NCBI GenBank assembly: GCA_965227295.1 | Contig: OZ245742.1 | Coordinates: 4,096,001-4,160,000 of the forward strand | Length of the DNA stretch: 64,000 nucleotides | DNA from: Leptonemataceae bacterium | Lineage (GTDB): Bacteria; Spirochaetota; Leptospiria; Leptospirales; Leptonemataceae | Direction: 5' to 3' | Shown: one piece after another, positions 7,977 to 36,290 of the stretch | Layout: each line of letters starts with the position of its first letter | How positions within the stretch are numbered: the first letter of the stretch is position 1 | Program-made: the position numbers and the translations under genes | Notes under the pieces: model-generated | Databases searched by the model: none | Told to the model about the DNA's origin: nothing | Seen by the model: only the letters and a program-made list of their open reading frames with translations

Positions 7977-9189
7977 CGAAAAAGGAAGATCGTTCGTAGT
8001 GGATTTCGGCTGCTGCCTGCCCTTCGGCCATAACCTCTACAGCGTAAAACTTTACCAGAAGCGCGAGGAAGCCCGGCAGCGCGAAACAAAGGCGATCGTG
8101 TGTCGCCGGGCCAAATCCTACGAGAGCTTCCAGCTCAAGAATTTCTTTTTTACGTTACCGGTACTCTACCCGGAAGTCATCGTAGACGCCGAACAGAACA
8201 AGCTCAAACGCATTCTCCTGCGAATCTCCCAGGGCCTGTCGTTTTTGCTCGGCGGCGCACTCATCCGGGACCTGCGCGCGAACCTCGCCGTCCGGCGTAT
8301 GTTCCGGCGGCACCGCATCGGCCCGGACGACCTGATCATCTTTCCCAGTGCGGACTACTACGGGACCAGGGCGCTCCTGAAGAAATTTCAGAAGATCCCG
8401 ATGTCGGCCCGGCCTCGCATGCATCTGCGCTTCATTGGCGTGCTGGAGCTGGCCCGGCATTCGTTTCGCAACAGCCTGCTGGATCTCACCACGCGCCTGA
8501 ATCAAATTCCCGACCGTGTCACGGTCAGCGCGGAAGTACCCCGTTATGCTCGCTATCTGGATACGATTCTGCCGGGTCGCTCCGTAATCGCGGAACCGTT
8601 CCCCGTCGAAACGAAAGCGCTTCCCGCGGCGAAGGCCGACAGGTCCCGGAAGCGGCAGCAGTTCACGCTGCTCTTGCCGGGTGTCAACCGCGCGGACAAG
8701 GGCTACTTCGAGCTTTTTAATCTGGCGAAGGAACTCTTCTTTCGTTTTCCGAACGTGAAGATCGTTATTCAGGACATGAAGAAGTGGGACCGGCACTTCC
8801 GGAAGAAGTACCAGCGAAAGCTCCAACGCCTGGTGAACGTGGAGCTCCTGCCGCCGATCCTGTCCCGGGAAGAAATCATGGAATCGTACCGCAGAGCGGA
8901 TCTCATTCTCCTGCACTACGAGCCCTCGGTGTACTTCTTTCGAGGTTCGGCGATTCACTACGAAGCCATTGCGAATCGCATCCCCGTGCTGGCCAGGAAA
9001 GGGTCCGGCTTTGTCCAGGAAGTCGAAAGCTGGTCTTCCGGCTGGACCTACGAAACCAAGCCGGAACTATTTGCGCGTCTGGAAGAGATCATGAACTACA
9101 CGCCGCCCGGTATCGAAAAGAAGATGGATGCCGCGTTTTCAAAATTCGAGCAGGAAGTACATGAAGCGACTCTTCATTATCTGTCATAA
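7963..9189 (+). CDS. Putative GT-B glycosyltransferase
   Basis: N-terminal GH, R-x-DKG, YRRADLILL, RGSAIHYEAI (GT-B C-terminal signature); polysaccharide operon context. Confidence 0.7.
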   Translation: MKTNNEKGRSFVVDFGCCLPFGHNLYSVKLYQKREEARQRETKAIVCRRAKSYESFQLKNFFFTLPVLYPEVIVDAEQNKLKRILLRISQGLSFLLGGALIRDLRANLAVRRMFRRHRIGPDDLIIFPSADYYGTRALLKKFQKIPMSARPRMHLRFIGVLELARHSFRNSLLDLTTRLNQIPDRVTVSAEVPRYARYLDTILPGRSVIAEPFPVETKALPAAKADRSRKRQQFTLLLPGVNRADKGYFELFNLAKELFFRFPNVKIVIQDMKKWDRHFRKKYQRKLQRLVNVELLPPILSREEIMESYRRADLILLHYEPSVYFFRGSAIHYEAIANRIPVLARKGSGFVQEVESWSSGWTYETKPELFARLEEIMNYTPPGIEKKMDAAFSKFEQEVHEATLHYLS

Positions 9190-10327
9190 GGACCATCTGG
9201 TCTCGGGCTCCTACGCTTTTTTTCAGGAGCTGCTGCAAGACGAGTTCGCGATTGAGATCATCGTGTACGACTTTCGCCTGCATTTTATCGAGACCCTGGT
9301 GAAGGCGCATCCCGACGCCGTCTACTTCCTGTTTCAGACGGAATTTCTCGCGCCCTGGTTCCTCACCCGGGGCATCAAGACGGTGGTCTTTCCCATGTTC
9401 GACGGCTGCGCCAACGCGCCGCCGGGTTACTTTCGCGTGCTGGATAACGCGTACGTGTTCAACTTTTCGAAGAAGCTGCACGCCCGCTGCACGAAGTCGG
9501 GCATCGTATCGTATCCGCTGACGTACTACCCGCCCGTGAAGACGAAGCCGGTCTCCTGGAAGGCGAAACAGGACCGACTATTCTACTGGCTACGCCGGCC
9601 GCTGGAAAAAATGCCGGAACACCGCATCGTGGAATTCTTCTCGCCGTATGTCGGCGGTTTTCACATTCACGACCGCCCGGACGGCTACAACTTCCTGAGT
9701 TCCACTTCGCGGAGCCCGGACCAATTCACCGCGACTTCGGACTGGTTCGAACAGCGCCAGGAGCTGGACCAAATCGTCGCGAATTCCAGGTTCTATCTCG
9801 CTCCACGACTGAGCGAAGGCATCGGCATGGCTTTTCTCGAGGCCATGTCCATGGGCTGCGTGGTGTTCGCGAACAACAACTCCACCCACGACCAGTACAT
9901 CTACCACGGCCACAACGGTTTCCTCATCGACTTTGAGTCGAAAGACAACGCCCTCATTCGCGCGCAGATTCGCGACGCCTTCGAGATCATTCGATCCGGT
10001 AAGCCCATCGGCGAAAACGCCCGGGAGTTTATGCGGACGGGACGGCCGGTATGGATCCGGCAGGCGGAACACCTGCGGACGATGGCCGTCGCGCTGCATG
10101 CAGCGCCGCCGGCCCGGCCGGGAGACTACACCGTGATCGAGCGCCTGCTCGGACGTTTGCTGGCGCAGGTCTACTATGTCGCTCACGCCTACGGTTACTA
10201 TGTCCTCGCCCTGGTGGCCGAGCGCATTGGAACCTTCGCCCCGTTAAGGAACAAAAGCTGGCTGTTAAAGTTGATTCGCACGGCGCGGAAACCGGTGCGA
10301 GCGGTGCTGGGTGGGAAATGGCAGTGA
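9161..10327 (+). CDS. Glycosyltransferase (GT4-like)
   Basis: APRLSEGIGMAFLEAMSMG (E-x7-E motif), HGHNGFL. Confidence 0.85.
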   Translation: MKRLFIICHKDHLVSGSYAFFQELLQDEFAIEIIVYDFRLHFIETLVKAHPDAVYFLFQTEFLAPWFLTRGIKTVVFPMFDGCANAPPGYFRVLDNAYVFNFSKKLHARCTKSGIVSYPLTYYPPVKTKPVSWKAKQDRLFYWLRRPLEKMPEHRIVEFFSPYVGGFHIHDRPDGYNFLSSTSRSPDQFTATSDWFEQRQELDQIVANSRFYLAPRLSEGIGMAFLEAMSMGCVVFANNNSTHDQYIYHGHNGFLIDFESKDNALIRAQIRDAFEIIRSGKPIGENAREFMRTGRPVWIRQAEHLRTMAVALHAAPPARPGDYTVIERLLGRLLAQVYYVAHAYGYYVLALVAERIGTFAPLRNKSWLLKLIRTARKPVRAVLGGKWQ

Positions 10328-11088
10328 GGCACTTCGCCGAATTAGTCGCTTACACCGTTCTGTTCAACCTGAAAGCGGCGACCAGAAACTACGCCCTGGG
10401 CTACCTGTGGTGGATCATCGAACCGGTCTTGCATCTGCTGATCCTGTTTCTGGTCTTCGGCGTTTTTTTTGGCCAGAGCGCCCAGGAGCACTACATTCCC
10501 TTCTTGCTGTGCGGCCTGGTGCCCTGGATCTGGTTCCACAAATCCGTCTCGGGCGGCATGGGCTCGATTGTCAGCGGCCGTAGCATCATCATGGACGCGG
10601 ACATTCCCAAAGTATTTTTCCCCACCGTGGCGATCCTGCAGGACTTCACGCGGGAGCTGATCGTGCTTGCCTGTCTCATCGTGACGCTGCTCATCGCCGG
10701 CGTTGCGCCACGCTCCGCCTGGCTCTTCCTGCCGGTTGTGATCGCGCTCCAGTTGATCCTGATCGCCTCCGTGGTTTACCTGCTCTCCATCGGCCTGCCC
10801 TATCTCCTGGACCTGGGGCAAATCATGCCGGCGCTGCTGCAGGTGTTGATGTTCGGCTCGGGTACTTTTTACGATTATCGCGATATGCCGGAAGCCTTTC
10901 AGCCACTCTTCCTGCTGAACCCCGTCGCCCTGCTCATCGGAATGTACCGGGATGTGCTGATCCACGGCACGCCCATCAATTTACAGGACTGCGCTTATAT
11001 CCTGGGGATCGCCGGCGTACTCGGGCTCATGAATCTCGCGCTGTATCGGACACTGGATAAAGACGTGCCCAGAATTTTGTTTCGTTAA
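10318..11088 (+). CDS. wzm: ABC-2 polysaccharide export permease
   Basis: LGYLWWIIEP, PFLLCGLVPW.WF, LNPV; about six TM segments. Confidence 0.9.
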   Translation: MAVRHFAELVAYTVLFNLKAATRNYALGYLWWIIEPVLHLLILFLVFGVFFGQSAQEHYIPFLLCGLVPWIWFHKSVSGGMGSIVSGRSIIMDADIPKVFFPTVAILQDFTRELIVLACLIVTLLIAGVAPRSAWLFLPVVIALQLILIASVVYLLSIGLPYLLDLGQIMPALLQVLMFGSGTFYDYRDMPEAFQPLFLLNPVALLIGMYRDVLIHGTPINLQDCAYILGIAGVLGLMNLALYRTLDKDVPRILFR

Positions 11089-11090
11089 CT

Positions 11091-11801
11091 ATGCACCCCT
11101 TACTGGAATTGGAAAACGTTTCTTTCTCGTATAGAACGGGCCACTCGATCTTCTCGAAATGGAAGACACGCAAACGAGTCTTACAGGATCTTTCCTTCGA
11201 CATTCTGCGGGGCGAAACGCTGGGAATCCTGGGGCGAAACGGTGCCGGCAAGAGTACCCTCTTGCGGTTGTTGTCCGGGATCGTGGTCCCGGACAGTGGA
11301 AACATCATCAAAAATTGCCGGAAGGTCAGCCTGCTGTCCATCGAGCTGGGATTCTCCGGGCAGCTCACCGGTATCGAGAACATTTTTCTGAGCGGCCTGT
11401 ATAACTCGTTCTCCAAACGCGAGATCAGCGCACTGATGCCCGAGATCATCGCCTTCGCGGACATCGGCAACGCCATCCACGATCCGCTGATCACATACTC
11501 TTCCGGGATGCGCGCCCGGCTCGGTTTTTCCATCGCGTATTTTCTGAAGCCGGACCTGCTCTTGATCGACGAGATCCTCGGCGTCGGGGACATTGATTTC
11601 CAGGTAAAATCGGAACGACTCATGAAAGCGAAGATTCAGTCCGATCAAACCGTGGTCCTGGTCACGCATGATCCGAACCTGGTTCGGAGCGTGTGTACGC
11701 GCGCACTCTGGATCGAAAACGGCCGGCTTCAATCCGTCGGTCCCACCGGGCAGGTGGTCGATGAATACCTGGCTCATATGCTCCCGGAAGAGAGTCGCTG
11801 A
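11091..11801 (+). CDS. wzt: Polysaccharide ABC exporter ATPase without a C-terminal carbohydrate-binding domain
   Basis: GRNGAGKST, YSSGMRARLGF, LLLIDE.LGVGD; 236 aa. Confidence 0.93.
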   Translation: MHPLLELENVSFSYRTGHSIFSKWKTRKRVLQDLSFDILRGETLGILGRNGAGKSTLLRLLSGIVVPDSGNIIKNCRKVSLLSIELGFSGQLTGIENIFLSGLYNSFSKREISALMPEIIAFADIGNAIHDPLITYSSGMRARLGFSIAYFLKPDLLLIDEILGVGDIDFQVKSERLMKAKIQSDQTVVLVTHDPNLVRSVCTRALWIENGRLQSVGPTGQVVDEYLAHMLPEESR

Positions 11802-11802
11802 C

Positions 11803-13101
11803 ATGTACGGTTCGATGAAACACATCCTCGCCCGGGCCATCCAGGTTTTCCGGCGGCTCCGGGCGCGGATCACCGGCCGGACTTCCGGGGACAATCATGC
11901 AACGATACACTTTCGATTTCGCGATCGAACCTTTACACTCAACGCCGGCACGCCCGCCCTGAACGTAATCGATACCATCGCTCCGGACGGTTCGTATGAG
12001 CCCTGGGTGTTGAAGTATCTGGAAATTACCTCGGACTATTTCGGTCCCGACAAAGACGCGGTGGATATTGGAGCGAACATCGGCATCGTTTCGCTCGCTC
12101 TGGCCGGCTTGCAGCATCAGGGCAACGTCGTCGCCATTGAGCCGGTATCGTTCTTGTTTGCTTGTCTGCAATCCAACCTGGAACAGAACCAGGTCCCGAA
12201 CGTCACAGCCCGCCGGGCGATCATAGATGACCGGGATGGGATGGTACGCGAAATCCAGGTCCCCGCGGGAGCGCCCGGGGGAGCCACCGTCGCGGGCAGC
12301 CCGGATAGAACACGCATCATCGCGCATTCCGAAACGGTACCCACCGCAAAGCTGGACACGTATCTACGGGAACAACATCCCGGACTACATGTTAAGATCT
12401 TGAAAATCGACGTGGAGAACTGGGAACTCCCGGTACTGAACGGAGCGGCGGAAACCATCCGGAGCGATGATCCTGTTACCCTGATTGAATTCAACGTACA
12501 ACATCGTTCTCTCGAGGTGGAGCGCGGCGGCTTTGACCTGTATCAGCGCCTGTCGTCCCTGTTTAAGCACCTGTTTTTGATCGACCGACTGCATCATGAT
12601 CTGATACCGATCCGGTCCTACGCGGAACTGCGCGGAGCCATGCTCACCGGACACTTTGTCGAAGACCTGCTCTGCTTCAACGACGCGAACTTTCTGGAGC
12701 ACCTTCGCCCTCATGTTTCGGCCCCCCGCTTCCCGACCTACTTCGCGGGAAAGCTCACGCTGAGCCGGAGCGGCCGGGAAAGCATCGTCAGTCTTTCACA
12801 CTATCCCGACAACTGGTGTCACGGGCACGATTTTTTTCTCCATGCCCGGGTTCCCGTTCACATCACGCTGACCAACGCGGGCCCGCACGAGAAGGTTCGC
12901 TTGCGGATCGCCGACGGCAATGCAGTCAGCGAATTCACGCTGGCGCGCCAGCCGGTGGAGCGCGTCTACGGCGTAAACGATGACGGCACTTTCATTCACG
13001 TCTTCGTGGAGCAAATCTTCAGCGCGGCCGGGTACTTTCAAAACGAAGACCCCCGCGAACCTGGCATACAGATTTCCGTACGGGAAGGCTCTTCAGAGTG
13101 A
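11803..13101 (+). CDS. FkbM-family methyltransferase with C-terminal extension
   Basis: VDIGANIG, VAIEP, LKIDVE.WE..VL.GA. The start could be 11803 or 11815. Confidence 0.85.
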   Translation: MYGSMKHILARAIQVFRRLRARITGRTSGDNHATIHFRFRDRTFTLNAGTPALNVIDTIAPDGSYEPWVLKYLEITSDYFGPDKDAVDIGANIGIVSLALAGLQHQGNVVAIEPVSFLFACLQSNLEQNQVPNVTARRAIIDDRDGMVREIQVPAGAPGGATVAGSPDRTRIIAHSETVPTAKLDTYLREQHPGLHVKILKIDVENWELPVLNGAAETIRSDDPVTLIEFNVQHRSLEVERGGFDLYQRLSSLFKHLFLIDRLHHDLIPIRSYAELRGAMLTGHFVEDLLCFNDANFLEHLRPHVSAPRFPTYFAGKLTLSRSGRESIVSLSHYPDNWCHGHDFFLHARVPVHITLTNAGPHEKVRLRIADGNAVSEFTLARQPVERVYGVNDDGTFIHVFVEQIFSAAGYFQNEDPREPGIQISVREGSSE

Positions 13102-14609
13102 GCGAGAACTTCGTAAACCGAACGTTACCCGTGTCGAGAATCATCGACCGGTTTCACAGGTACCCCGTAAAGGTCCTGTGGCACGAAACGTTTTGGGCCG
13201 AGGCGGATTCTATTTTCGCGGCGTTCTATTCGTTCTGCAAGGTCGGCGAGAAGTACGTCTCTTTGCACGGGGAAATGAAAATCGAAACGTTTCACCAGCG
13301 ACGCAAAGCCGGCGCGAAAATCGCGGAGCTGTACAAAACCGAATACGAACTTACAGACAACGGACTGGTGCCCACGGGCCGGCGTCGCATCGGTCTGGGC
13401 GCGGACCCCCGGATGGTCAGCGACGGCGAAAACTGTTATGCCTACGTCATCGGCTACGGAGAGGCCGGCCATCCGGCCTTTCTCTACGTCGAAAAGGACG
13501 ACTCCCTGCGCCCGCTCCAGGCCCCGGACGATTTTTTCTGGGGCAAGAACTGGCAGCCGTATCTGGAAGACGGCCGGCTGTTTATCGTTCACGAGCTGAC
13601 TCCGTATCGAATCTATGAAGTCGACCTGGCAACCTGCGTTCTGGAGGAAGTGCACCAGGGACGAACGGACCCGGGACTTTCGGCCCATCATACGCACTAC
13701 TCGATGTTACGCGGCGGCGCCAACGCCATCGCCGAAAATGATTACGTCTACGGGATCGGCCGGGCGTCGACACAACCCTACAAACACTTTCCGTTTCTCT
13801 GGTCGAGTTACCGGCGGGAAGCCCCCGTCGTCCAGTTCATCGATATCTTTTGCGGTCTTGTCGAGAAAGGCTTCAGCATTCTCGATCCCACCTCTATGTG
13901 GAAGGACGGCGCGGGCCTGGCCTTTGGACTGGCCTGCTCCGAAACGTGTTGGTTTTTCGAGCAACGTTTCCTGAACCTGCTGCTGTTCATCGACGCGGAA
14001 GGCAAGTATCCGAATTTGCCGACGCTGGATGATTTTTTGACAGACTTCGAGGATCACTACACCAACGGCACGCCGCGCCTGGAAAGACACATCTTTCACT
14101 GCGATCAAATGCAGCACGACGTCGCCCATACGTTCGAATACGGTGTCCGGTCCAGCGGCATGCCCGGCGCCCTGGTCTACGGGCCGTACATTCGCCCGGC
14201 CAGAGCGATGTTCCTCGCCGTCGAGTTGACCTATCTGACCATGCACCCGGCCGGAGGCTGCCCCGGGGTCTTTGATATCATGCTATCGCGAGAGGATGAT
14301 ACCGGCGAGGTCGAGTTCGTCCGGGCCGCAGAGTGCCGCCTGGAAAACACGGATCGTGAGATCGCGTCCGCGATGCTCTACCTCGACACCGGCAAATACA
14401 TCGGATGGAAAATAGAATTTCGAGTCATCGTGAACGAAGGTATCGAGCTCAACGCCTTTCATGTTCGAACACAAGAAATCCCGGGCCCGATCCCTGCGCC
14501 GGCACAGACGCCGCAAAAACAAACAGACGACGCCGGTCACTCGCGCTCTTTCACGGAGACGATGTTTCACAAGGCGATGAGCTTGCTCCACTTTTTGCGG
14601 CCGCGATGA
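13098..14609 (+). CDS. Hypothetical glyco-enzyme, paralog of 6696..7976
   Basis: ADPR, GKNWQPY, LRGGANAI, SILDPTS; the C-terminal domain begins GALVYGPYI. Confidence 0.6.
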   Translation: MSENFVNRTLPVSRIIDRFHRYPVKVLWHETFWAEADSIFAAFYSFCKVGEKYVSLHGEMKIETFHQRRKAGAKIAELYKTEYELTDNGLVPTGRRRIGLGADPRMVSDGENCYAYVIGYGEAGHPAFLYVEKDDSLRPLQAPDDFFWGKNWQPYLEDGRLFIVHELTPYRIYEVDLATCVLEEVHQGRTDPGLSAHHTHYSMLRGGANAIAENDYVYGIGRASTQPYKHFPFLWSSYRREAPVVQFIDIFCGLVEKGFSILDPTSMWKDGAGLAFGLACSETCWFFEQRFLNLLLFIDAEGKYPNLPTLDDFLTDFEDHYTNGTPRLERHIFHCDQMQHDVAHTFEYGVRSSGMPGALVYGPYIRPARAMFLAVELTYLTMHPAGGCPGVFDIMLSREDDTGEVEFVRAAECRLENTDREIASAMLYLDTGKYIGWKIEFRVIVNEGIELNAFHVRTQEIPGPIPAPAQTPQKQTDDAGHSRSFTETMFHKAMSLLHFLRPR

Positions 14610-17937: not shown

Positions 17938-19500
17938 TCAACTCCGCGAAATCATCTGTAAGTACGCGCTGATAAACCGTTGTACGGGAAGTTCCAGGAG
18001 CGAATACCGACCTGGCCGGTAGTAACGGGAACGCACGCCGGCGTGGTTGTCCTCGGTAATGCGCGTGTCCTGTTCGATGGTATGGCGCCACATCCAGGTG
18101 AGCCGATCCAGGTCGTAGTCGCGCCCCGCCTCGGCCCCGCCGTCTACGAGCCAGGTGACGGTGACTTCGGTTTTCTCCGGAGCGAGGGGCGTGAAACGAA
18201 ACAGCGTCGCATGATCCGCGGCGGCACTGACAAAGTGAATCGGCCCGAGGGCCACGACGGTTTCCCCGCCGTCGAATTCCCGGAAGTTACCCATGAGCGG
18301 GGCAATGGGTTTTCCGTCCTCGCTCAGGGTCTCAAAACCCTCACGAATGGGCTGGCGATAACATACGATGGGTTGTTCGGTGAGGACCCGGGTGACGTGA
18401 TCGCTCATGCCGACGATGCCGTTCTTTGCGCGGACGCCCTCCTCCCAGTGCGCGGTTAATTTTTGATAGGCTTCGATATCTCTCTGTTTTCCCAGGGAGT
18501 TCCCGGCCGCGTGGGCGTTGACCTTGCAGTACTGCGGATGCGTCGGCACGCAGTGGTAACATTCCAGAAAGTTCTCGCTGACCAGCTTCCAGTTGGCCCG
18601 CACGACCGTGCGATCGATGTGCGCGACCCGCGCATCACCAAAGCCGTGCGGCCCGAGGTACTCGTCCAGCATCGAAGACGCCCGGGAAAAATCCGGTGGC
18701 ACGCCGTCGCGTTTCAGGTTGATGAAGATCATCCCGTGGACCAACTGCACATGGCAGGCCATAAGACCGTTCGCCGCCGGATCAAAATCCGCGGGCATGG
18801 CCCGGGCGCCTTTCAACGAGCCGTTGAGATCGTACGACCAGGCATGGTACGGGCAGACCAGCGTCCGCGTTTTACCGGTAGGATTTGTACAGATGTGCGA
18901 GCCGCGATGGCGACAGACGTTGTGGAAGGCGCGCACGTCCCCGTCCTGGTCGCGCAGAATGATGATGGAATCCCCGGCCACATCGAATAGAAAGTAACAA
19001 CCGGTCTCCGGGATCTGAGATACATGGCCCGCATACAACCAGAGGTGCTGGAAGACGTAACGCACGTCCGTCTCGAAGACGTCGTTGTGAGTGTAAAATT
19101 CACGCGGCAGGCTGTAGCCGTGTTCGTACGCGGCAATCCACTGCCGGATGCCTTCGTTCCCGGCCGGCGCGGCCGAAGGCTCCGCAGCAATATCTTCGAA
19201 GTTCGTTTCATTGTCGGCGGATTCCATCGTAAACGCTTCGACCAGTCCCTCCTCGATGGTCTTTTCGACGATGGAACGGAACGGCCGCATGAGCAGGCTC
19301 AGTTCAATGTCGATGTCGACGCGCTGTGCTCCCAGGCGGACCTCGCCCTGGATGCCCGTGCCGGCAATGCGACAGTGATCCCCTTCCCACGTACTGTTGA
19401 TGCCTTCGTCCTGTTGCATGCGTTGCAGAAAGAGACGGACGCGCTCTTTCGCTTCTTGTGCAGAGACTGAAAAGTCTCGTGCGATCGTGATCTGAGTCAT
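17938..19500 (-). CDS. Rieske non-heme iron oxygenase alpha subunit (GbcA/choline monooxygenase-like) with N-terminal PHA_gran_rgn-like domain
   Basis: CRH-x17-CPYH Rieske motif, ENFLECYHC..TH and EQD iron ligands. Residues 1-90 resemble the 'polyhydroxyalkanoic acid system' small protein. A GGGGGA RBS precedes ATG 19500. Confidence 0.88.
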   Translation of the reverse strand: MTQITIARDFSVSAQEAKERVRLFLQRMQQDEGINSTWEGDHCRIAGTGIQGEVRLGAQRVDIDIELSLLMRPFRSIVEKTIEEGLVEAFTMESADNETNFEDIAAEPSAAPAGNEGIRQWIAAYEHGYSLPREFYTHNDVFETDVRYVFQHLWLYAGHVSQIPETGCYFLFDVAGDSIIILRDQDGDVRAFHNVCRHRGSHICTNPTGKTRTLVCPYHAWSYDLNGSLKGARAMPADFDPAANGLMACHVQLVHGMIFINLKRDGVPPDFSRASSMLDEYLGPHGFGDARVAHIDRTVVRANWKLVSENFLECYHCVPTHPQYCKVNAHAAGNSLGKQRDIEAYQKLTAHWEEGVRAKNGIVGMSDHVTRVLTEQPIVCYRQPIREGFETLSEDGKPIAPLMGNFREFDGGETVVALGPIHFVSAAADHATLFRFTPLAPEKTEVTVTWLVDGGAEAGRDYDLDRLTWMWRHTIEQDTRITEDNHAGVRSRYYRPGRYSLLELPVQRFISAYLQMISRS

Positions 19501-19727
19501 AGTTTCCCCCGACAGCATTTGAAGTTCGTCGGACTGTAAGCGATCGTGAACGACGAGTCAATATGCGGCGGAGTGAATGACAAAACATCGGCATGTCTGA
19601 CAGTACCGGGACGACTGACGTTCAGTACGTGATGTTGTCGTTCGTTGCCCCCACCGTTGACCGGCCCTGCCGTTCCGGCGTATATTCTTCAAAACGAAAG
19701 CGCAGAGCTTTCCGGAGGAAGCTGTAA

Positions 19728-23541: not shown

Positions 23542-23973
23542 TCAACCATCCTCCGTAAGAAACAACGGGAAGGCCGGCCGTCCCAGGGGTTTCGCCGCCA
23601 GCGAAAGCAACAGCATTTCGCTATCGTCGGGAGCAATGCGATTCGAATGAATGACACCGCAACCGCGACATCGATGCAGCAGGACCCATTCGTCGCTGCG
23701 TACCCATATGGCGATCGGTTCCATGATGCTGCCGCAGTCCGCGGCCCGATCCCCCGGGCGATGATCTACGTGCAGGCTGTGCAAACAGAGCGGACAATGA
23801 TTGCGTTGCGTCGTACCGGAATGCGCCGGGCCGATTAGAGCCCGACACTTGCGGCAGCGAAAGTCAGCGCCGGCCTTCTGTTTCTGATGAGGCTTCGGTG
23901 CGTGATCGTGGGCGGAACGCCCGCGTTTTACTGGAATCTTCTCGAAAGAGAAGTCATCGGATTTTCGTATCAT
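23542..23973 (-). CDS. RNHCP domain protein
   Basis: FRCRKC, QRNHCPLCLHSLHVD, PGDRAADCG, HRCRGCG, NRIAPDD. Confidence 0.92.
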   Translation of the reverse strand: MIRKSDDFSFEKIPVKRGRSAHDHAPKPHQKQKAGADFRCRKCRALIGPAHSGTTQRNHCPLCLHSLHVDHRPGDRAADCGSIMEPIAIWVRSDEWVLLHRCRGCGVIHSNRIAPDDSEMLLLSLAAKPLGRPAFPLFLTEDG

Positions 23974-24211: not shown

Positions 24212-27200
24212 TCACGCCGACGGTACATTTTGCCGGCGCTCGTCCCTGGTCTCCAGCGCGCGCACGGCAATGTTGCACGTATCGTGGAGCGCGCCCGAGG
24301 TAAATCGATCCAGGCGTTCCAGCCAGGCGGCGGGTAGTTTGCTTTCCACCATCCGAAACAGGTTCAGGTCCGCAGGCACTGCGCTCATTAACAGGAGCTC
24401 GCGGGAAACGGCGAGCTGTAAGATGCAGCCGCGCACCAGGTCACTCAGCAGTTCCGTCTCCCGCGGATTGTGCGAGCCGCCGTAGCTGCGTTCCATCATC
24501 AGCACCTGACCGCTTTCTTCCAGGTGCACCGGGCGCACCTCCTGTTGTTTGGCGCGATCGATGCCGACCTCGTACTGCTTCGCAATCTGCGCGATCATCT
24601 CCGCCACCCGATCCAGATAACGCCGGGTGACCTCGTTTTTTTCCGAGCGCAGGTCGATGGACAGGCGCGCCTTCGAACTGCTGCGAATGTAGCTCACGTG
24701 ATCCATGCGGCAGAGGCGGACGCCCTCCCCGCCGCGTTCCACGTTCTTTGCTAATGTTGTCGCAGCGTAAGCTTGCAGATCGCGCACAAGATCTTCGCGT
24801 TGTTCCTCGTCCAGGCGATCCCCTTCCACGGCCAGGGAAAAACTCACCGAGCCCGGGATGACGTTGCGGTTCGTACCCGGTTGCAGGCGCACGTTACCGG
24901 CCACGGCGCGGAATTCTCGATCGTCTCCTGCGCTTGCGTCCAACTCCTGGACGAGTTCAATGAACTTATGCGTGAACCGGCCCGCGGCCACCCCCGGATC
25001 CCGACGATCGTACGTCGGCGTGGCGCCGGCGTGATTCATCTCCCCCTCGAACGTCCAGCGCGTCGCCAGGTTCGTCTCCTCGTGACAGGTAGAAGTATCC
25101 GAGGTCTCCGACTCGTCCTGGTGCTCGCCCTCGAGGATGCCCACGGTCAGACGCACGTCGTCGTCGCCTTCCAGGAATTCCAGAACCAGTTCCCGCAGAC
25201 GGCGGTTCATTTCCAGTGCCGCGGCCTCGGCCTGATCGCCTTCGAAGAAGAAGTCCTCCTGGTAGATGCCCATGATCGTACCCACCATCACGATGGGCAC
25301 GCCGTTGCGGTCGAGGATCGGCCCCTGTTCGATGTGACGTTCGTAGCTGTGCGGTGAATAGAACTCCGTGGGATCATAGCACGCTTCGAGTAACTCCGCA
25401 AAGTCCGTGGGCGTATGACCGTCGGCGGAGGCCTCGGGTTTCGGCAGATCATTCAACAGCTGGATGTCGCCGCTTTGTTGAACGGCGGCCAGTTGCACGA
25501 GCATGTGATGCAATAGATCGCCCCAGCGTTCGCCGTTGCCGTTGGTCATATCGTGGATGAGTTCCGGTGTCGCCCGCCCGGCCACCGCCGCACTGCCGGG
25601 CATGGATACGCCCTGGCCGGTAAACGTCATCTCCTCGCCGATGAACGCGCTCACCAACAGACGCACAGGGCGGTCTTTCGTAACGATGGTATGACTGCAG
25701 TACTGCTCGAGGTCGTGCAACGTGTGGGCCGTTTCGATGCCGGACAGGACGCCCAGGCGGCCGTCGAATTTGCCCCCGTCGTTCACCGTATCGATGTGCG
25801 AACCGTGGGCGACGGTGTGGCGCAGCACGTCCGCGATCTTAAGTTCCCCGGAACGGATCTTAGCGTCTTCGCCGGGAGCCAGAAGCAAACCGTGCAGATT
25901 GCCCACCCGGTCCACGGCCACGGAGAGCCCCGCCGCCTGCATGTCCTGGATCGTAAGAATCGTGGAACGCACGAATCCCGGCGTAAGCGCCCGGGCGTCA
26001 ATGCGGCCGTCCTCTTCTTTGGAGACCGCGCCGAGACGGTCGATGCGGCGGCGCAGTCGCACCCCGACGCCGCGCAAGCGTTCCAGTTCGCGGACATCAC
26101 TCAGGAACCTGCTGATGTCCGCGCCTTCTTCCAGTTCCCGGCCGATATGATTCAGAGTATTGTAGTATACGATCACGCAGGCCACGTCCGCGAGGACTTC
26201 CAGTTCCTGCTCGGACCAACGCGCGTCTTCGCGAACGATGTGTTCGAGGTTCGTATCGCGTACGAGCTGGCGCAGTTCCGCGAGTATGGCGGGCACGTCA
26301 CCGCTGCGTTCCTCCCGGGCGTATATCAACAGCCGCGCGAGGTCCGCGAAGGCGTCTCCGCGTCCCGTGCGGCGATCCCGATCGTCGTCCCGGGGCGTGG
26401 GATCGTGGTGGCCCATGTGTTCGACGGTGATGTTGTTCGCGTAGGTCCACGTTTCCGGATCGCCGATGCTGCCCGGCTCGGCTCCGCTGAGCCGGCGCAC
26501 GAGATCCGCATGATCCTTAAGTTCTATTGCACGTAAGTTAATCTCGGAGGCGTCGCATTCCAGAAGCTCGCTGATGTGGTGACGCTGTTCGATGGTGAGT
26601 TCGTGTTCGTCCAGGCGGAAGTGGCCGAGGAGCGGCGCACGAAAGACCAGGGCGTCCGGGGAGTGCAGGAACTCCCGCACGAGAGCCACCGGGAACGGCT
26701 CGTTGACGTACAGGGTCGGATCGATCACCCGTTCCACGGCCCGGCCGTTGTCCTCGTCCCAGAACGTGCAGACGGTGAAGATGTGCGTGCGCGCGATGGC
26801 GAACTGTACGCGCTCCTCGTGATGCAACACGTAGTTTCCGGCGTGAATCTCACCGGCTTCGATCTCCACGTCAGGACACGTCTCCACGAGCATCTTTCGC
26901 AGCCGCGGATCGTTGAGGTCTCCCAGACTGTGCAGAGGATTATCGAGAACGAGGGCGTGCTTGCGTTTTTCGAGATCGCCCTCCTGCAGGGCCGCCGGCG
27001 ACATGTTGCGTTCCATAATCAGGCCGCGAGCCAGAGCATAGGACGGAATGCCCAGTTGCACAAGATACTCGATGATGAGCGACGCCTTCTTACCGCAGCC
27101 GTACTCCGCCACGGAGTACGGCAGGGCCAGATACGCCAGGATCAGATCAAAGATGTCGTCCTGCTCATGCAACATCGGCAGGCCCGTGGAGGCGTCGCGA

Positions 27201-27247
27201 TCTATACTTACCGGAAGGGTCTCAGGTTTCGAACCGAATACGAGCAT
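24212..27247 (-). CDS. Fusion protein: N-terminal Cys-His-Asp (protein-glutaminase-like) domain plus M20 Zn amidohydrolase (allantoate amidohydrolase/N-carbamoylase-like)
   Basis: The M20 half has GSHIDTV..GGKFDG..GV, GEE, HIEQGP, NHAGATP, SHNPRE and SGALHD. The N-terminal half has PY...GC..KA, HIFTV and VIDPTL. Confidence 0.75.
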   Translation of the reverse strand: MLVFGSKPETLPVSIDRDASTGLPMLHEQDDIFDLILAYLALPYSVAEYGCGKKASLIIEYLVQLGIPSYALARGLIMERNMSPAALQEGDLEKRKHALVLDNPLHSLGDLNDPRLRKMLVETCPDVEIEAGEIHAGNYVLHHEERVQFAIARTHIFTVCTFWDEDNGRAVERVIDPTLYVNEPFPVALVREFLHSPDALVFRAPLLGHFRLDEHELTIEQRHHISELLECDASEINLRAIELKDHADLVRRLSGAEPGSIGDPETWTYANNITVEHMGHHDPTPRDDDRDRRTGRGDAFADLARLLIYAREERSGDVPAILAELRQLVRDTNLEHIVREDARWSEQELEVLADVACVIVYYNTLNHIGRELEEGADISRFLSDVRELERLRGVGVRLRRRIDRLGAVSKEEDGRIDARALTPGFVRSTILTIQDMQAAGLSVAVDRVGNLHGLLLAPGEDAKIRSGELKIADVLRHTVAHGSHIDTVNDGGKFDGRLGVLSGIETAHTLHDLEQYCSHTIVTKDRPVRLLVSAFIGEEMTFTGQGVSMPGSAAVAGRATPELIHDMTNGNGERWGDLLHHMLVQLAAVQQSGDIQLLNDLPKPEASADGHTPTDFAELLEACYDPTEFYSPHSYERHIEQGPILDRNGVPIVMVGTIMGIYQEDFFFEGDQAEAAALEMNRRLRELVLEFLEGDDDVRLTVGILEGEHQDESETSDTSTCHEETNLATRWTFEGEMNHAGATPTYDRRDPGVAAGRFTHKFIELVQELDASAGDDREFRAVAGNVRLQPGTNRNVIPGSVSFSLAVEGDRLDEEQREDLVRDLQAYAATTLAKNVERGGEGVRLCRMDHVSYIRSSSKARLSIDLRSEKNEVTRRYLDRVAEMIAQIAKQYEVGIDRAKQQEVRPVHLEESGQVLMMERSYGGSHNPRETELLSDLVRGCILQLAVSRELLLMSAVPADLNLFRMVESKLPAAWLERLDRFTSGALHDTCNIAVRALETRDERRQNVPSA

Positions 27248-27336: not shown

Positions 27337-27825
27337 CTAACCGGCGTTCTTTTTTGATTGTCTGGACGATTTTTTGGCGGCGGTTTTCTTGCGCGCGGAT
27401 GCCTGAGGTTTCGTTGCGGCCGGCCGTGAGCGTTTCCCGGGCTGCGCCTCTTCCACGGCTTTGAGGGCGGCCAGGCAGATGGCCCGGGCGGCGGTGGGCG
27501 CGACGGCCTTGAAGAGCAGGGCCGCGGCCTTGCTTTTGCCCGGTTGTTTGATCAGCGTGCACTCGAAGTTCCCGTCCAGCTCCGGACGTTGCGACAGACA
27601 TTCGAGGCGAATTTTCTTTGCGGCCAGCGCCGTGAGCACCTCTTCGACAGCCGTGGAGGCGTCGTCGGAGTACGCGGGAATAAAACCATGACCGCGGCTG
27701 TGACGGAAGCCGTATTCGCCGCGGTCCGGCCAGAGGCGATCGTGGCGATTGCGGACCCAGCCCATGACGTGTTCGGCCACCCGGGCGTCGAGCTTGAAGT
27801 CGCTATGTTCGATGGGTCTGCGCAC
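27337..27825 (-). CDS. Phage ABA-sandwich (BC1872-like) domain protein with Lys/Ala-rich tail
   Basis: LDARVAEHVMGW, PAYS.D...A, A.TAARAICLAALKA; GTG start at 27825 assumed. Confidence 0.7.
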   Translation of the reverse strand: MRRPIEHSDFKLDARVAEHVMGWVRNRHDRLWPDRGEYGFRHSRGHGFIPAYSDDASTAVEEVLTALAAKKIRLECLSQRPELDGNFECTLIKQPGKSKAAALLFKAVAPTAARAICLAALKAVEEAQPGKRSRPAATKPQASARKKTAAKKSSRQSKKNAG

Positions 27826-27927
27826 TGCTATAAGTATCGGCCGGCGCGCGTTTCGCGGCCGTGCGAATCCGGGAAAATATTTACGAAAATCGATTGCGGG
27901 CCGGCTCGCGGGGATCACAGTCCGGGC

Positions 27928-28830
27928 ATGCGCATTTCGATCATCGTGCCCACTCTCAACGAAGAAGAGTTCCTTCCGGTCTTGCTTGAGTCCGTAAAAA
28001 AACAGTCCTTCACGGATTACGAAATCATTGTGGCCGATGCAGGCTCCACGGATCGCACCGCGAAAATCGCGAAGAGTTACGGGGCGCAGGTGGTGCCCGG
28101 CGGCATGCCCGGTCCGGGACGGAACCGCGGCGCCGAGGTGGCCCAGGGGGAGTTCTTATTCTTCTTCGATGCCGACGTCGAACTGGAGGACCGCGACTTT
28201 CTTGCGAAGGCTCTCTCCGAACTGGACGAACGTTTCCTGGACGTGGCCACCTGCGAGTTCTGGCCGAAATCGGACCTGCGCCTGGACGACGTCATGTTTC
28301 GTGTCACGAATCTTTCCATGAAAATGAACGAGTCTATCAGCCCGCGCGCACCGGGCTTCTGTATCCTGATCACCCGGCGCCTCTTCCGACGCATCAATGG
28401 ATTCGACGAAACACTGAAGCTGGCCGAGGACCACGATCTCGTGCAGCGCGCCGCGGAGTTTCGCACGTTTCGCGTACTGAAAAATTCTTCTATTAAAGTG
28501 AGCATCCGCCGCCTGGAAAAAGAAGGCCGCTTCGCCCTCACGCAAAAGTATCTCCAGGTGGAAATGCATCTGCTCTTTAAGGGCAACATTCGCGACGAAA
28601 TCGTGGAATACGAGTTCGGCAACTTCGGAAACGAGAAAGACGGCAAGGGCATTCTGGATCGCCTGGAAAGCTCGATCATCGATCTGGAAAAGGCCTACGA
28701 TCGGCAGTTCGGCAAGAACGCGGACGGCGATACGGCGGACGACAAGACCGGCGACTCCGCCTTCGAAAAACTGCGTTCCGGCTTCGACAGCGCCGTGAAG
28801 TCCCTGGGCGATCTGCTAAAGGTACGATGA
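27928..28830 (+). CDS. Glycosyltransferase family 2
   Basis: ISIIVPTLNEE, IIVADAGSTDRT, RNRGA, FFDAD, GFDE...AED. Confidence 0.92.
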   Translation: MRISIIVPTLNEEEFLPVLLESVKKQSFTDYEIIVADAGSTDRTAKIAKSYGAQVVPGGMPGPGRNRGAEVAQGEFLFFFDADVELEDRDFLAKALSELDERFLDVATCEFWPKSDLRLDDVMFRVTNLSMKMNESISPRAPGFCILITRRLFRRINGFDETLKLAEDHDLVQRAAEFRTFRVLKNSSIKVSIRRLEKEGRFALTQKYLQVEMHLLFKGNIRDEIVEYEFGNFGNEKDGKGILDRLESSIIDLEKAYDRQFGKNADGDTADDKTGDSAFEKLRSGFDSAVKSLGDLLKVR

Positions 28831-34463: not shown

Positions 34464-34511
34464 AGGCAAATGTCTGTTGCGCCACGATTCGCCGTACATC
34501 TAATTGCTCGT

Positions 34512-36290
34512 ATGCGTTTTTGTCTTGTTGCCGTTTCGATTTTTCTGCTCGCCGCCTGCGGGCCGCGCCCCGTGGTTCTGGACGGCATCGAGGTGCCGGC
34601 CGGAGAACTCAGCCGGCCGAAGACCGGAAGTCACAGCCGCTACTGGACGCGCTCCCAAAAATACATGATCGCCACCGACGCCCCCGAGGCCTCCGCGGCC
34701 GGCGTGGAGATGTACGAGGCCGGCGGCAACATCGTCGACGCGGCGGTGGCCGTGAGTTTTGCCATTTCAGTGGTACGCCCGCAATCCACCGGTCTCGGCG
34801 GCGGCGGATTTTTGGTCCTGCACCTCGCCGATTCAGAACGCACCGAGTCTTTTGATTTTCGCGAGCGCGCGCCGCTCTCCGCTCACCGCGACATGTACCT
34901 CGACGAAGACGGTACGGTCTCCAAAGAAGATCAAGCGTCGCTCTTCGGGCCGCGGGCAGTGGGCGTTCCAGGAACCGTCGCAGGACTCGTGGAGATCCAT
35001 GCGAAGTACGGCAAACTACCGCTCGCGAAAACCATTGAACCGGCGCTGCGCCTGGCCCGGGACGGCTTCCCGGTTTACCCGGACTTGAAACGTTCCATTA
35101 TGCTGGCCCGGACGGACTTCGACGATGAGATGGCCCGGGTCTTTCTGCCCGGCGGACGACTCCCCGACGTCGGCGACGTTCTCGTACAAAGTGATCTTGC
35201 AAAGACATTAAGAATCGTAGCCGAGAACGGCAGGGCACCGCTCTATTCCGCGGACGGCGAAATCGCGAAGGCCCTGGCCGGGTACATGCAGGCGAACGGC
35301 GGTTTGATCACGACGAAGGATCTTACGCAGTACCGGGTCCTGGCCGGGCCACCGTTGCGAACGAAATACCGGGACCGTTTTGAAGTGGCGATTATGCCGC
35401 CGCCGTCCTCGGGCGTGTTCATCCTCGAGATGCTGCACATGCTCGAAACGAAAGACCTGCGTGCGCTTTATGAAAGCGACCGCGTGCAATACGAACACTT
35501 CCTGGCCGAGGTCTTTCGCCGGGGGTACGCCGATCGCGCCGCCTACGGCGGGGACGCACGCTTTTTTGACGTTCCCGCGGCGCAACTCACCTCGCGCCGG
35601 TACGCCCGGGAGCGAATTGCTAACTTTTCTCCGGAAAAAGTTACGGAAAACGCCGCGGTGGCGCCGGCAGTCCTCGCCCCGGCCCTCCCGGACGAATCCA
35701 ACGAGACCACGCACTTTTCGATCATGGACGCGGACGGCAACGCCGTGGCCTCGACACAGTCGGTGAACTACGGCTTCGGCGCCCGGGTGATGCTGCCGGG
35801 CTGGGGCATTGTGCTCAACGACACCATGGACGACTTCAGCAAGTCGCCGGGCGTGCCCAACGCCTATGGGTTGATCGGCGGGGAAGCCAACGCCATCGCC
35901 CCCGGTAAAACGCCGCTTTCGAGTATGTCACCGACGATCGTCTTCGACGAAGACGGCCGCGCTCTCATGGCCGTGGGCGCGCCGGGCGGCTCGCGCATTA
36001 TCACCGGCATCCTGCAAACCATGCTGCACGACCTCGATCTGGGTTTGCATCCCTACGTCTCCGTGGCCCGGGGACGCATCCATCACCAGTTTTTGCCGAA
36101 CAAGCTTTCCATCGCGGATTCTCCGCGCGGTCGGTCCCGGGCGGGCGCTCTGAAAAAACTGGGTCACGACACGGTCACGGCGCGCTGGCAGGCGAAAGTA
36201 TTTTTCGTGCGGCGGGATGAACAGGGCTTTGTCGGCGTTTCGGACCCGCGCGGGGACGGACAACCGATGGGCGAGCCGCCAGGGAATTAA
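34512..36290 (+). CDS. ggt: Gamma-glutamyltransferase (lipoprotein)
   Basis: Lipobox LLAAC, GGNIVDAAVA, GLGGGGF, DFRERAP, ETTHFS nucleophile, PLSSMSP, GAPGGSRI. Confidence 0.95.
   Translation: MRFCLVAVSIFLLAACGPRPVVLDGIEVPAGELSRPKTGSHSRYWTRSQKYMIATDAPEASAAGVEMYEAGGNIVDAAVAVSFAISVVRPQSTGLGGGGFLVLHLADSERTESFDFRERAPLSAHRDMYLDEDGTVSKEDQASLFGPRAVGVPGTVAGLVEIHAKYGKLPLAKTIEPALRLARDGFPVYPDLKRSIMLARTDFDDEMARVFLPGGRLPDVGDVLVQSDLAKTLRIVAENGRAPLYSADGEIAKALAGYMQANGGLITTKDLTQYRVLAGPPLRTKYRDRFEVAIMPPPSSGVFILEMLHMLETKDLRALYESDRVQYEHFLAEVFRRGYADRAAYGGDARFFDVPAAQLTSRRYARERIANFSPEKVTENAAVAPAVLAPALPDESNETTHFSIMDADGNAVASTQSVNYGFGARVMLPGWGIVLNDTMDDFSKSPGVPNAYGLIGGEANAIAPGKTPLSSMSPTIVFDEDGRALMAVGAPGGSRIITGILQTMLHDLDLGLHPYVSVARGRIHHQFLPNKLSIADSPRGRSRAGALKKLGHDTVTARWQAKVFFVRRDEQGFVGVSDPRGDGQPMGEPPGN

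Follow-up and report, generated by a model that had tools for sequence, protein, structure and literature searches.

The window analysed here, a stretch of 64,000 nucleotides from a Leptonemataceae bacterium (assembly GCA_965227295.1, contig OZ245742.1, positions 4,096,001 to 4,160,000), contains a gene whose product joins a protein-glutaminase-like domain to an M20 amidohydrolase domain. The gene occupies positions 24212-27247 of the window on the minus strand and, according to the open reading frame (ORF) list and its translation, is a single ORF of 1011 aa with an ATG start and a TGA stop; the plus-strand reading of the same interval is closed by many stops. The coordinates and length given in the initial annotation of this DNA are thus correct, while the strand, which it left unstated, is minus. 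Homologues with the same MLVFG...ETLP beginning support the start codon, and the extent of the gene is supported by 110 homologues, 102 of which are near full length. The encoded protein, hereafter the fusion protein, consists of a papain-fold core (aa 1-230; 26558-27247), a helical region (aa 231-392; 26072-26557) and a diverged M20 domain with an enlarged lid/dimerization domain (aa 393-1011; 24212-26071), all on the minus strand, as are the codons listed below. The full-length AlphaFold model has a predicted local distance difference test score (pLDDT) of 93.7 and a predicted template modelling score (pTM) of 0.93; such a pTM over 1011 residues predicts that the two halves form one compact rigid body. 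Hydropathy analysis found no membrane or signal segment in the fusion protein (maximum over 19 aa, 1.42), and no hydrophobic N-terminal or transmembrane segment in 103 members of the family. The enzyme is therefore probably soluble and cytoplasmic.

The Cys-His-Asp positions of the N-terminal domain proposed in the initial annotation, together with the 21-residue spacing between His and Asp, are borne out by the translation and a codon check. The segment LPYSVAEYGCGKKA corresponds to aa 42-55 and holds Cys51 (codon 27095-27097), the predicted nucleophile; HIFTV (aa 155-159) contributes His155 (26783-26785), the predicted general base, and RVIDPTL (aa 173-179) supplies Asp176 (26720-26722), the predicted third residue of the triad. 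An AlphaFold2 model of aa 1-390, based on an alignment of 36 N-terminal domains (termed A2), displays a pLDDT of 91.3 and a pTM of 0.90. In this model Cys51 sits at the N-terminal end of a helix (aa 51-64), His155 lies within a strand (154-164) and Asp176 is just past a second strand (169-175), which is the classical papain arrangement. Foldseek searches with aa 1-390 returned protein-glutaminases as all of the best six matches in the PDB (E values 3e-3 to 2e-2, probability 1.00), the N-terminal glutamine amidohydrolase ranking after them. Structural superposition with VIA-align gave the same answer. Comparison with the protein-glutaminase 2zk9 gave a Z score of 11.8 and a root mean square deviation of 2.4 Å over 151 of 185 residues, with Z scores of 11.5 for 3a54 and 3a56 and 10.8 for 8z3i, compared with 6.3 for the next family, NTAQ1. 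Among 48,161 PDB representatives only three chains, all protein-glutaminases, reached a Z score of 8 or above; the next match, at 7.1, was a helical hairpin. The papain- or transglutaminase-like structural match that the earlier reading of this region called for was thus found, and it is specifically to protein-glutaminases. Looking up aa 1-390 in the ESM Atlas yielded, at best, a score of 0.82, under the useful range, with weak transglutaminase-like leads. In the models parts of the helical region, which carries an invariant G262-D263-P264..W267..N271 motif, pack on the protease-like core, and the region leads into the M20 domain; its structural matches are generic helical ones only (Z scores of ∼6-7).

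The sequence relationship between the N-terminal domain and the protein-glutaminases is remote. No Pfam (E≤0.01) or NCBIfam match was obtained for aa 1-390, PF18626 (Gln_deamidase_2) was not matched by the whole protein at E≤1, and the A2 profile returned no PDB match at E≤10. An intermediate profile was therefore needed to reach the solved structures. When A2 was used as a hidden Markov model in an exhaustive search of 1.84 billion representative proteins, it retrieved 48 proteins, nearly all of them complete or fragmentary versions of the fusion. Set apart in this search are seven distant proteins (350-784 aa, E values 4.5e-11 to 1.9e-4); five exceed the Pfam cut-off for PF18626 (P0126-P0129 and P0133), one falls just under it and one has no match. 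Profile-profile comparison with hhalign matched A2 to these seven proteins with a probability of 99.4% (E value 4.4e-21 over 233 columns), placing Cys51 on the Cys of an EYGC motif, His155 on GHIA and Asp176 on VIDP. The profile of the distant proteins in turn matches protein-glutaminase (E value 0.0034), with their His and Asp falling on His83 and Asp103 (mature numbering). PMC13298967 numbers the protein-glutaminase triad in the pro-form (C156-H197-D217) and describes a 114-residue pro-peptide, which shields the active site; the 114-residue offset converts these positions to mature C42, H83 and D103. A merged alignment of 27 rows, comprising N-terminal domains and the distant PF18626 proteins, contains exactly five invariant columns (M1, C51, R74, H155 and D176), and its profile matched only four PDB entries at E≤10, all protein-glutaminases, weakly (E values 0.29-0.59) but in the same register. 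It should be noted that the register of His and Asp is given directly by the profiles, while that between Cys51 and the protein-glutaminase Cys derives from structural superposition only. P0128 on its own also gave no PDB match. The P0126-P0133 proteins, a small and very sparse group, stand between protein-glutaminase and the fusion N-terminal domain; like the latter, they have the Cys-His insertion and a portion of the helical extension. Signal-like segments are found at the start of three of the seven distant proteins, and P0128 carries ∼500 residues of lysine-rich repeats at its front.

Collectively, the models show that the N-terminal domain adopts a papain fold most like that of protein-glutaminase, with a conserved Cys51-His155-Asp176 predicted triad. 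The likeness to the enzymes from Chryseobacterium proteolyticum (2ZK9, 3A54/3A56) and Flavobacterium (8Z3I) extends to the Cys at a helix N-terminus and an ‘H..(20)..IDP' motif whose residues align one to one, the His and Asp being 20-21 residues apart, and hydrolysis of a carboxamide via a thioester would be expected. The differences are, however, considerable. Identity is only ∼13%, and the domain in the fusion contains ∼60 residues inserted between Cys and His, plus a helical extension of 160 residues. By hydropathy it lacks a signal or pro-peptide, with only ∼40 residues preceding the Cys motif, and it is joined to an M20 domain in a protein likely to be cytoplasmic and to act on a small molecule.

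By sequence and predicted fold, the C-terminal domain belongs to the hydantoinase/carbamoylase branch of M20. Within NCBIfam, aa ∼394-930 match ‘allantoate amidohydrolase' subfamilies, the ErtE carbamoyl-glutamate amidohydrolase and TIGR01879 (E values 1e-37 to 1e-42), always at scores well under the cut-off; the best subfamily is NF006771 (4.4e-42; 144 bits against a cut-off of 399), and TIGR01879 gives 1.7e-39 (135.9 bits against 204). Among solved structures the closest in sequence is 3n5f (E value 8.5e-16), an L-N-carbamoylase, and the top ∼36 Foldseek matches of the full-length model are all from the hydantoinase/carbamoylase family (2.5e-21 for 3n5f to 1e-15), other M20 enzymes appearing only from 8e-9. 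The lid-domain fold is present, with PF07687 (M20_dimer) scoring 21.4 bits against a cut-off of 21, and comparison with the canonical carbamoylase of the same genome by hhalign gave a probability of 99.5%. The metal ligands that had been placed in the C-terminal ∼620 aa are all present. Alignment to 3n5f identifies His484 (25796-25798, GSHIDTV), the bridging ligand Asp495 (25763-25765, FDGRLG), the catalytic base Glu538 and the ligand Glu539 (25631-25636), and His638 (25334-25336, ERHIEQG), which are each found in 103/103 proteins of the fusion alignment described below; the last ligand, His926 (24470-24472, GGSHNP), is found in 102/103. In a comparison of 70 M20 rows (18 fusion proteins, 26 carbamoylases from the gene cassette described below and 26 other family members) these six residues, together with Gln641, His739, Arg748 and Glu930, are identical throughout, Gln641 being the counterpart of the glutamine that orients the carbamoyl group. 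According to PMC10952681, Gln196, Glu131 and His385 of carbamoyl-β-alanine amidohydrolase hold the carbamoyl group, Glu131 being a key residue, and Arg291 of the 8c46 structure makes a salt bridge to the carboxylate of the substrate. The fusion protein retains counterparts of the first three. Conversely, the Arg, which follows an NV(I/L)PG strand in 52/52 canonical rows, aligns with Glu808 (24824-24826) of the fusion protein; the equivalence of position 808 and Arg291 derives from the PDB sequence alignment and the numbering offset of the HIEQG glutamine. The site is variable in the fusion family, where only 8/103 proteins contain Arg, and Arg794, Asp865 and Arg867 have become new invariants. 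A ‘DLR' at 865-867 had been considered as the canonical Arg motif but was dropped when hhalign, HMMER and MAFFT all placed the canonical Arg at 808. Insertions add approximately 200 residues to the domain, one of them being a second strand-helix unit of the lid. As the metal ligands and the carbamoyl-holding residues are kept while the Arg clamp is lost, the alignments suggest that the domain looks like a working ureido hydrolase with a rebuilt grip on the far end of its substrate. The solved relatives, L-N-carbamoylase (3N5F), N-carbamoyl-β-alanine amidohydrolase (8C46), allantoate amidohydrolase (1Z2L/4PXD) and β-alanine synthase (1R3N), have the same fold, five metal ligands, catalytic Glu and carbamoyl-orienting Gln and His, but differ from the fusion domain in that the latter falls under the curated cut-offs, carries extra insertions, has lost the Arg291 counterpart, has R794, D865 and R867 as new invariants and sits on a very long branch.

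A word-indexed search of 5.8 billion proteins placed the fusion protein in a family of 111 clusters, including the query. The fusion alignment comprises 103 rows that are essentially full length (920-1033 aa); the eight clusters excluded are shorter (578-898 aa), several being labelled partial. Cys51 is kept in 101/101 aligned homologues that reach that position, two others being truncated at the N-terminus, His155 in 103/103 and Asp176 in 102/103, the single replacement being Asn. This motif pattern is far beyond chance, and the conservation of the predicted triad, on which the initial annotation had made its reading depend, is borne out. The fusion itself is also conserved, since among the 48 relatives of the N-terminal domain the single-polypeptide form, rather than split genes, is the rule. 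Named carriers are found in Alteromonadaceae, Pseudohongiellaceae, Nitrosomonas, Leptospiraceae, Saprospiraceae, Flavilitoribacter, Haloferula and Rhodomicrobium, and a scan of one genome per species (loci L001-L046) added Calditrichales, Phycisphaeraceae, Opitutales, Akkermansiaceae, Cyclobacteriaceae and a Melainabacteria metagenome-assembled genome (MAG); the names mostly point to marine, saline or soda-lake organisms. In a tree of M20 domains the window protein clusters, within the fusion clade, with Leptospirales-type sequences, and the next groups out are from Alteromonadaceae, Pseudohongiella and Opitutales. As this branching ignores phylum boundaries, it suggests lateral spread of the fusion gene. 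Literature searches found no description of a protein-glutaminase fused to an M20 domain or a carbamoylase, and the accessible part of the literature on the classification of PF18626 mentions no such fusion. The view that the architecture is undescribed stands in this respect, although the family is already present in databases, where every named fusion member bears a hypothetical or generic annotation. The fusion is a new architectural combination of two known kinds of hydrolase.

The genomic setting of the family provides an indication of its substrate. In Bacteroidota loci the fusion gene lies inside or abuts, in four different arrangements, a four-gene cassette that encodes a ∼155-aa membrane protein without a family, a Na+/solute symporter, an enzyme with the aspartate/ornithine-carbamoyltransferase fold and a glutamine-hydrolysing, asparagine-synthase-like amidotransferase. 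Cassette genes are within the flanks of the fusion at nine of the 46 loci; outside Bacteroidota no recurrent partner was found among the fusion neighbours, save for one isochorismatase gene (L043). In the genome that contains the window the best matches to the carbamoyltransferase-like and amidotransferase-like enzymes (46% and 53% identity, respectively) are sited together, outside the window, in a six-gene cassette on the minus strand (G000:C1:3347066-3354580; positions 7066-14580 of locus L090). This encodes a ∼155-aa protein with a signal peptide and transmembrane segment, the symporter, the carbamoyltransferase-like enzyme, a carbamoylase, an isochorismatase-family hydrolase and the amidotransferase. 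The two hydrolase genes lie between those for the carbamoyltransferase-like and amidotransferase-like enzymes. The carbamoylase is canonical (530 bits against the NF006771 cut-off of 399), while the best names for the isochorismatase-family hydrolase are the biuret amidohydrolase BiuH and RutB, to which it is only weakly similar, below threshold. Directly upstream of this cassette a 1058-aa protein with HAMP, PP2C (SpoIIE) and TPR domains is encoded on the same strand (L090 15073-18249), which could regulate the cassette. No description of the cassette was found in the literature searched.

The residues of the carbamoyltransferase-like enzyme suggest what it makes. The STRTR and HPTQ motifs and the Arg of the ‘GRT' motif are kept, but the R-x-Q-x-E-R of PyrB is replaced by N-S-I-A-W and a four-residue deletion. 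In Escherichia coli aspartate carbamoyltransferase R229 and Q231 bind the side-chain carboxylate of aspartate, and the roles of the residues in the cassette enzyme are taken from the known carbamoyltransferases. With the R-x-Q motif lost, and the carbamoyl-phosphate residues and the α-carboxylate Arg kept, the sequence indicates that the enzyme should not bind the aspartate side-chain carboxylate but should still be able to carbamoylate an α-amino acid. Relatives are numerous, at least 1,677 for the carbamoyltransferase-like enzyme and at least 2,356 for the amidotransferase-like enzyme. The amidotransferase scores 302 bits against TIGR03104 (cut-off 570), a member of the NAGGN osmoprotectant ‘trio', which consists of an asparagine-synthase-like amidotransferase, an acetyltransferase/ligase and an M42 hydrolase. 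The logic of that locus appears to resemble the cassette in the AsnB-like amidation of the carboxylate of an N-blocked glutamine derivative and in the presence of a metallohydrolase gene, but the N-cap would be carbamoyl in the cassette and is acetyl in NAGGN, and the hydrolase families differ.

Co-occurrence extends the link beyond the loci where the genes adjoin. Of the 16 fusion-bearing genomes tested, 15 carry an orthologue of the carbamoyltransferase (43-78% identity; the PyrB paralogue has 30-36%), the sole exception being a 2.4-Mb MAG, and the amidotransferase adjoins it in 6/6 of the fusion genomes checked. Base rates are low: the orthologue was found in 4/401 genomes of the window's phylum, with the fusion in one (the window's own), and in 25/400 genomes of the class around the Alteromonas genome, again with one fusion. 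These data show a genomic tie between the fusion family and a conserved cassette. The cassettes of 20 of the 24 other positive genomes in the class sample were examined, and 20/20 contain a carbamoylase and an isochorismatase-family gene; at the threshold used, the symporter was recognized in 18 and the small protein in 15. Two fusion-less relatives from the phylum sample (G377 and G389) display the same carbamoylase-plus-isochorismatase arrangement. By contrast, neither of these separate hydrolases was found anywhere in the genomes of the Calditrichales, Nitrosomonas and Flavilitoribacter fusion carriers (G003, G004 and G806), where the fusion is the only hydrolase candidate. Two Alteromonadaceae retain the carbamoylase beside the cassette, and at one of these, an Alteromonas locus, the isochorismatase orthologue is directly downstream of the fusion. 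The pattern is of a module in two forms: an isochorismatase-fold amidase with a canonical carbamoylase, or a papain-fold amidase joined to a remodelled carbamoylase. The two forms share their gene context and a predicted chemistry of cysteine amidase and di-metal ureido hydrolase, but the cysteine enzymes have unrelated folds (isochorismatase versus papain-like), there are two polypeptides rather than one, and the canonical carbamoylase retains the Arg clamp (26/26).

The view best supported by these data, and one we consider reasonably likely, is that the fusion protein is a bifunctional amidohydrolase, the single-polypeptide counterpart of the hydrolase pair, which degrades an N-carbamoyl amino-acid amide made by the cassette. 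The two-active-site, amide-processing enzyme of the initial annotation accords with both domains and with the gene context, although the substrate class is deduced, through the sequences, from the combination of a carbamoyltransferase with AsnB-type chemistry. In the proposed pathway the carbamoyltransferase-like enzyme would carbamoylate an α-amino acid using carbamoyl phosphate, and the AsnB-type amidotransferase would convert its carboxylate to an amide, yielding the N-carbamoyl amino-acid amide. The Cys domain of the fusion would then hydrolyse the carboxamide via a thioester, freeing NH3, and the M20 domain would hydrolyse the ureido group, freeing CO2 and NH3 and returning the parent amino acid. 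Because the carboxylate-clamping Arg is lost, the M20 domain may take the amide-capped form directly, and the order of the steps may thus differ from that in the separate enzymes. The fusion would replace the hydrolase pair in some genomes and accompany it in others.

Several observations weigh against this view. The N-terminal domain passes no Pfam threshold and the M20 domain scores below every NCBIfam cut-off. The M20 tree, in which the fusion and the cassette carbamoylases are each monophyletic, provides no sister link between the two, and the stem of the fusion clade is very long (2.26 changes per site). Unrelated and heterogeneous neighbours surround the fusion at 36 of the 46 loci, and in the window genome the cassette is not adjacent but ∼0.77 Mb away. 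The fusion is absent from 24/25 and 3/4 of the cassette-bearing genomes in the class and phylum samples, respectively, indicating that it is dispensable for the cassette. The window genome and one other (G001) carry both the fusion and the separate pair, and strict replacement is therefore not universal. Finally, the co-occurrence counts span related and partly incomplete genomes and so are not independent trials.

An unlikely alternative is that the hydrolases serve biosynthesis rather than breakdown. Here the carbamoyl would protect the amino acid only for a time, in the way that acetyl does in arginine synthesis; carbamoylation would be followed by amidation, after which the hydrolases, separate or fused, would complete the product by stripping off the carbamoyl and/or one amide. 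Most cassettes indeed have their hydrolases in the same operon and on the same strand as both biosynthetic genes, which is unusual for a solely degradative module, and the loss of the carboxylate-binding Arg from the fusion M20 domain is as expected for an amidated intermediate. Several cassettes (L120, L121 and L122), however, lack any hydrolase gene, and the fusion is unlinked in many genomes, which is a better fit to an accessory or turnover role. In addition, the M42 hydrolase of the NAGGN ‘trio' provides a precedent for a hydrolase gene beside osmolyte synthesis genes.

A protein- or peptide-directed enzyme, in which the N-terminal domain would deamidate glutamine side chains, the M20 domain would trim peptides and the cassette link would be incidental, is improbable. 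Such a role draws on the nearest solved structures being true protein-glutaminases and on the many M20 enzymes, among the lower Foldseek ranks, that are peptidases. Known protein-glutaminases are, however, secreted, and the fusion protein has neither a signal nor a pro-region. The former enzymes also carry the shielding pro-peptide noted above (PMC13298967). Moreover, the M20 domain groups with carbamoylases (E values 1e-15 to 1e-21) rather than peptidases (1e-8 or worse), the carbamoyl-orienting Gln is retained, and the association with the cassette is specific (15/16 compared with 1-6%). Still less probable is a role in purine or pyrimidine nitrogen salvage, as an allantoate, ureidoglycolate or β-ureidopropionate amidohydrolase whose N-terminal domain would be accessory and perhaps regulatory: the top NCBIfam names are ‘allantoate amidohydrolase' subfamilies and the solved relatives include EcAAH, AtUAH and β-alanine synthase, but the scores are far under the curated cut-offs (144 versus 399 bits), the carboxylate-binding Arg required for those substrates is not conserved, the invariant Cys-His-Asp argues against a purely regulatory domain, and no recurrent purine or pyrimidine catabolic genes were found near the fusion.

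Returning to the bifunctional amidohydrolase, a tentative and somewhat doubtful extension is that the solute made by the cassette is the Ectothiorhodospira osmolyte and that the fusion is the dedicated catabolic enzyme of this solute. A glutamine capped at both its amino and carboxyl groups would resemble peptide-bound glutamine, and a protein-glutaminase-like domain might on that basis accept it. Ectothiorhodospira was expected among the homologues of the carbamoyltransferase before the search was made, and orthologues with 64-70% identity were then found in E. lacustris, E. magna, E. shaposhnikovii, Ectothiorhodospira sp. PHS-1 and an Ectothiorhodospiraceae isolate; Thiohalobacter and Thiohalophilus are also among the close orthologues. 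In the isolate, the contigs carrying the carbamoyltransferase and the amidotransferase are equal in length. These sequences are consistent with the osmolyte assignment but are no proof of it. The mostly marine, saline or soda-lake origin suggested by the names of fusion carriers, and the residues kept and lost in the carbamoyltransferase-like enzyme, also speak for it. Against it, E. marismortui was not seen among the close carbamoyltransferase homologues, and the assignment is tempered by the cassette also being common in organisms never examined for the solute. The accessible text of the literature naming the Ectothiorhodospira solute mentions no genes.

The analysis thus provides a conserved family (111 sequence clusters, from eight or more phylum-level groups) with a concrete proposal for a two-step mechanism. 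The protein-glutaminase fold, hitherto known from secreted protein-modifying enzymes, appears here to have been recruited intracellularly and joined to a carbamoylase, and the use of either the fusion or the isochorismatase-plus-carbamoylase pair would represent gene displacement by an unrelated fold. The work also exposes a widespread six-gene cassette whose chemistry predicts an N-carbamoyl amino-acid amide. Should the cassette compound prove to be the osmolyte of Ectothiorhodospira, a gap of 30 years in compatible-solute biochemistry would become directly testable. As carbamoylases and protein-glutaminases are both industrial enzymes, the fusion is also of practical interest.

The neighbours of the fusion gene in the window, which include genes for an RNHCP protein, an NmrA-like reductase, a chemoreceptor and a glycosyltransferase, offer no functional clue, and scans for promoters and terminators around the gene gave nothing beyond the shuffled expectation. 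Located 238 bp downstream on the same strand is the gene for a 143-aa RNHCP-domain zinc-ribbon protein (23542-23973, minus strand), followed by that for the NmrA-like reductase; a NAD_binding_10/NmrA-like gene also follows the fusion at another locus (L004). At a distance of 7 kb is a gene for a gamma-glutamyltranspeptidase (34470-36290, plus strand), which lies behind that for a hybrid histidine kinase containing a 7TMR-DISM domain; other genomes showed no link between the transpeptidase and the fusion. Elsewhere in the window, a 526-aa ORF (17938-19518, minus strand) combines a PF09650 PHA-granule-region domain with Rieske and ring-hydroxylating oxygenase alpha catalytic domains, the N-terminal addition being unusual. 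Situated 90 bp upstream of the fusion, a 193-aa ORF (27337-27918, minus strand) displays a weak, sub-threshold match to Phage_ABA_S and a lysine-rich C-terminal tail. It is overlapped on the opposite strand by the ORF for a family-2 glycosyltransferase (27544-28830, plus strand), and one or other of these two calls may be spurious.

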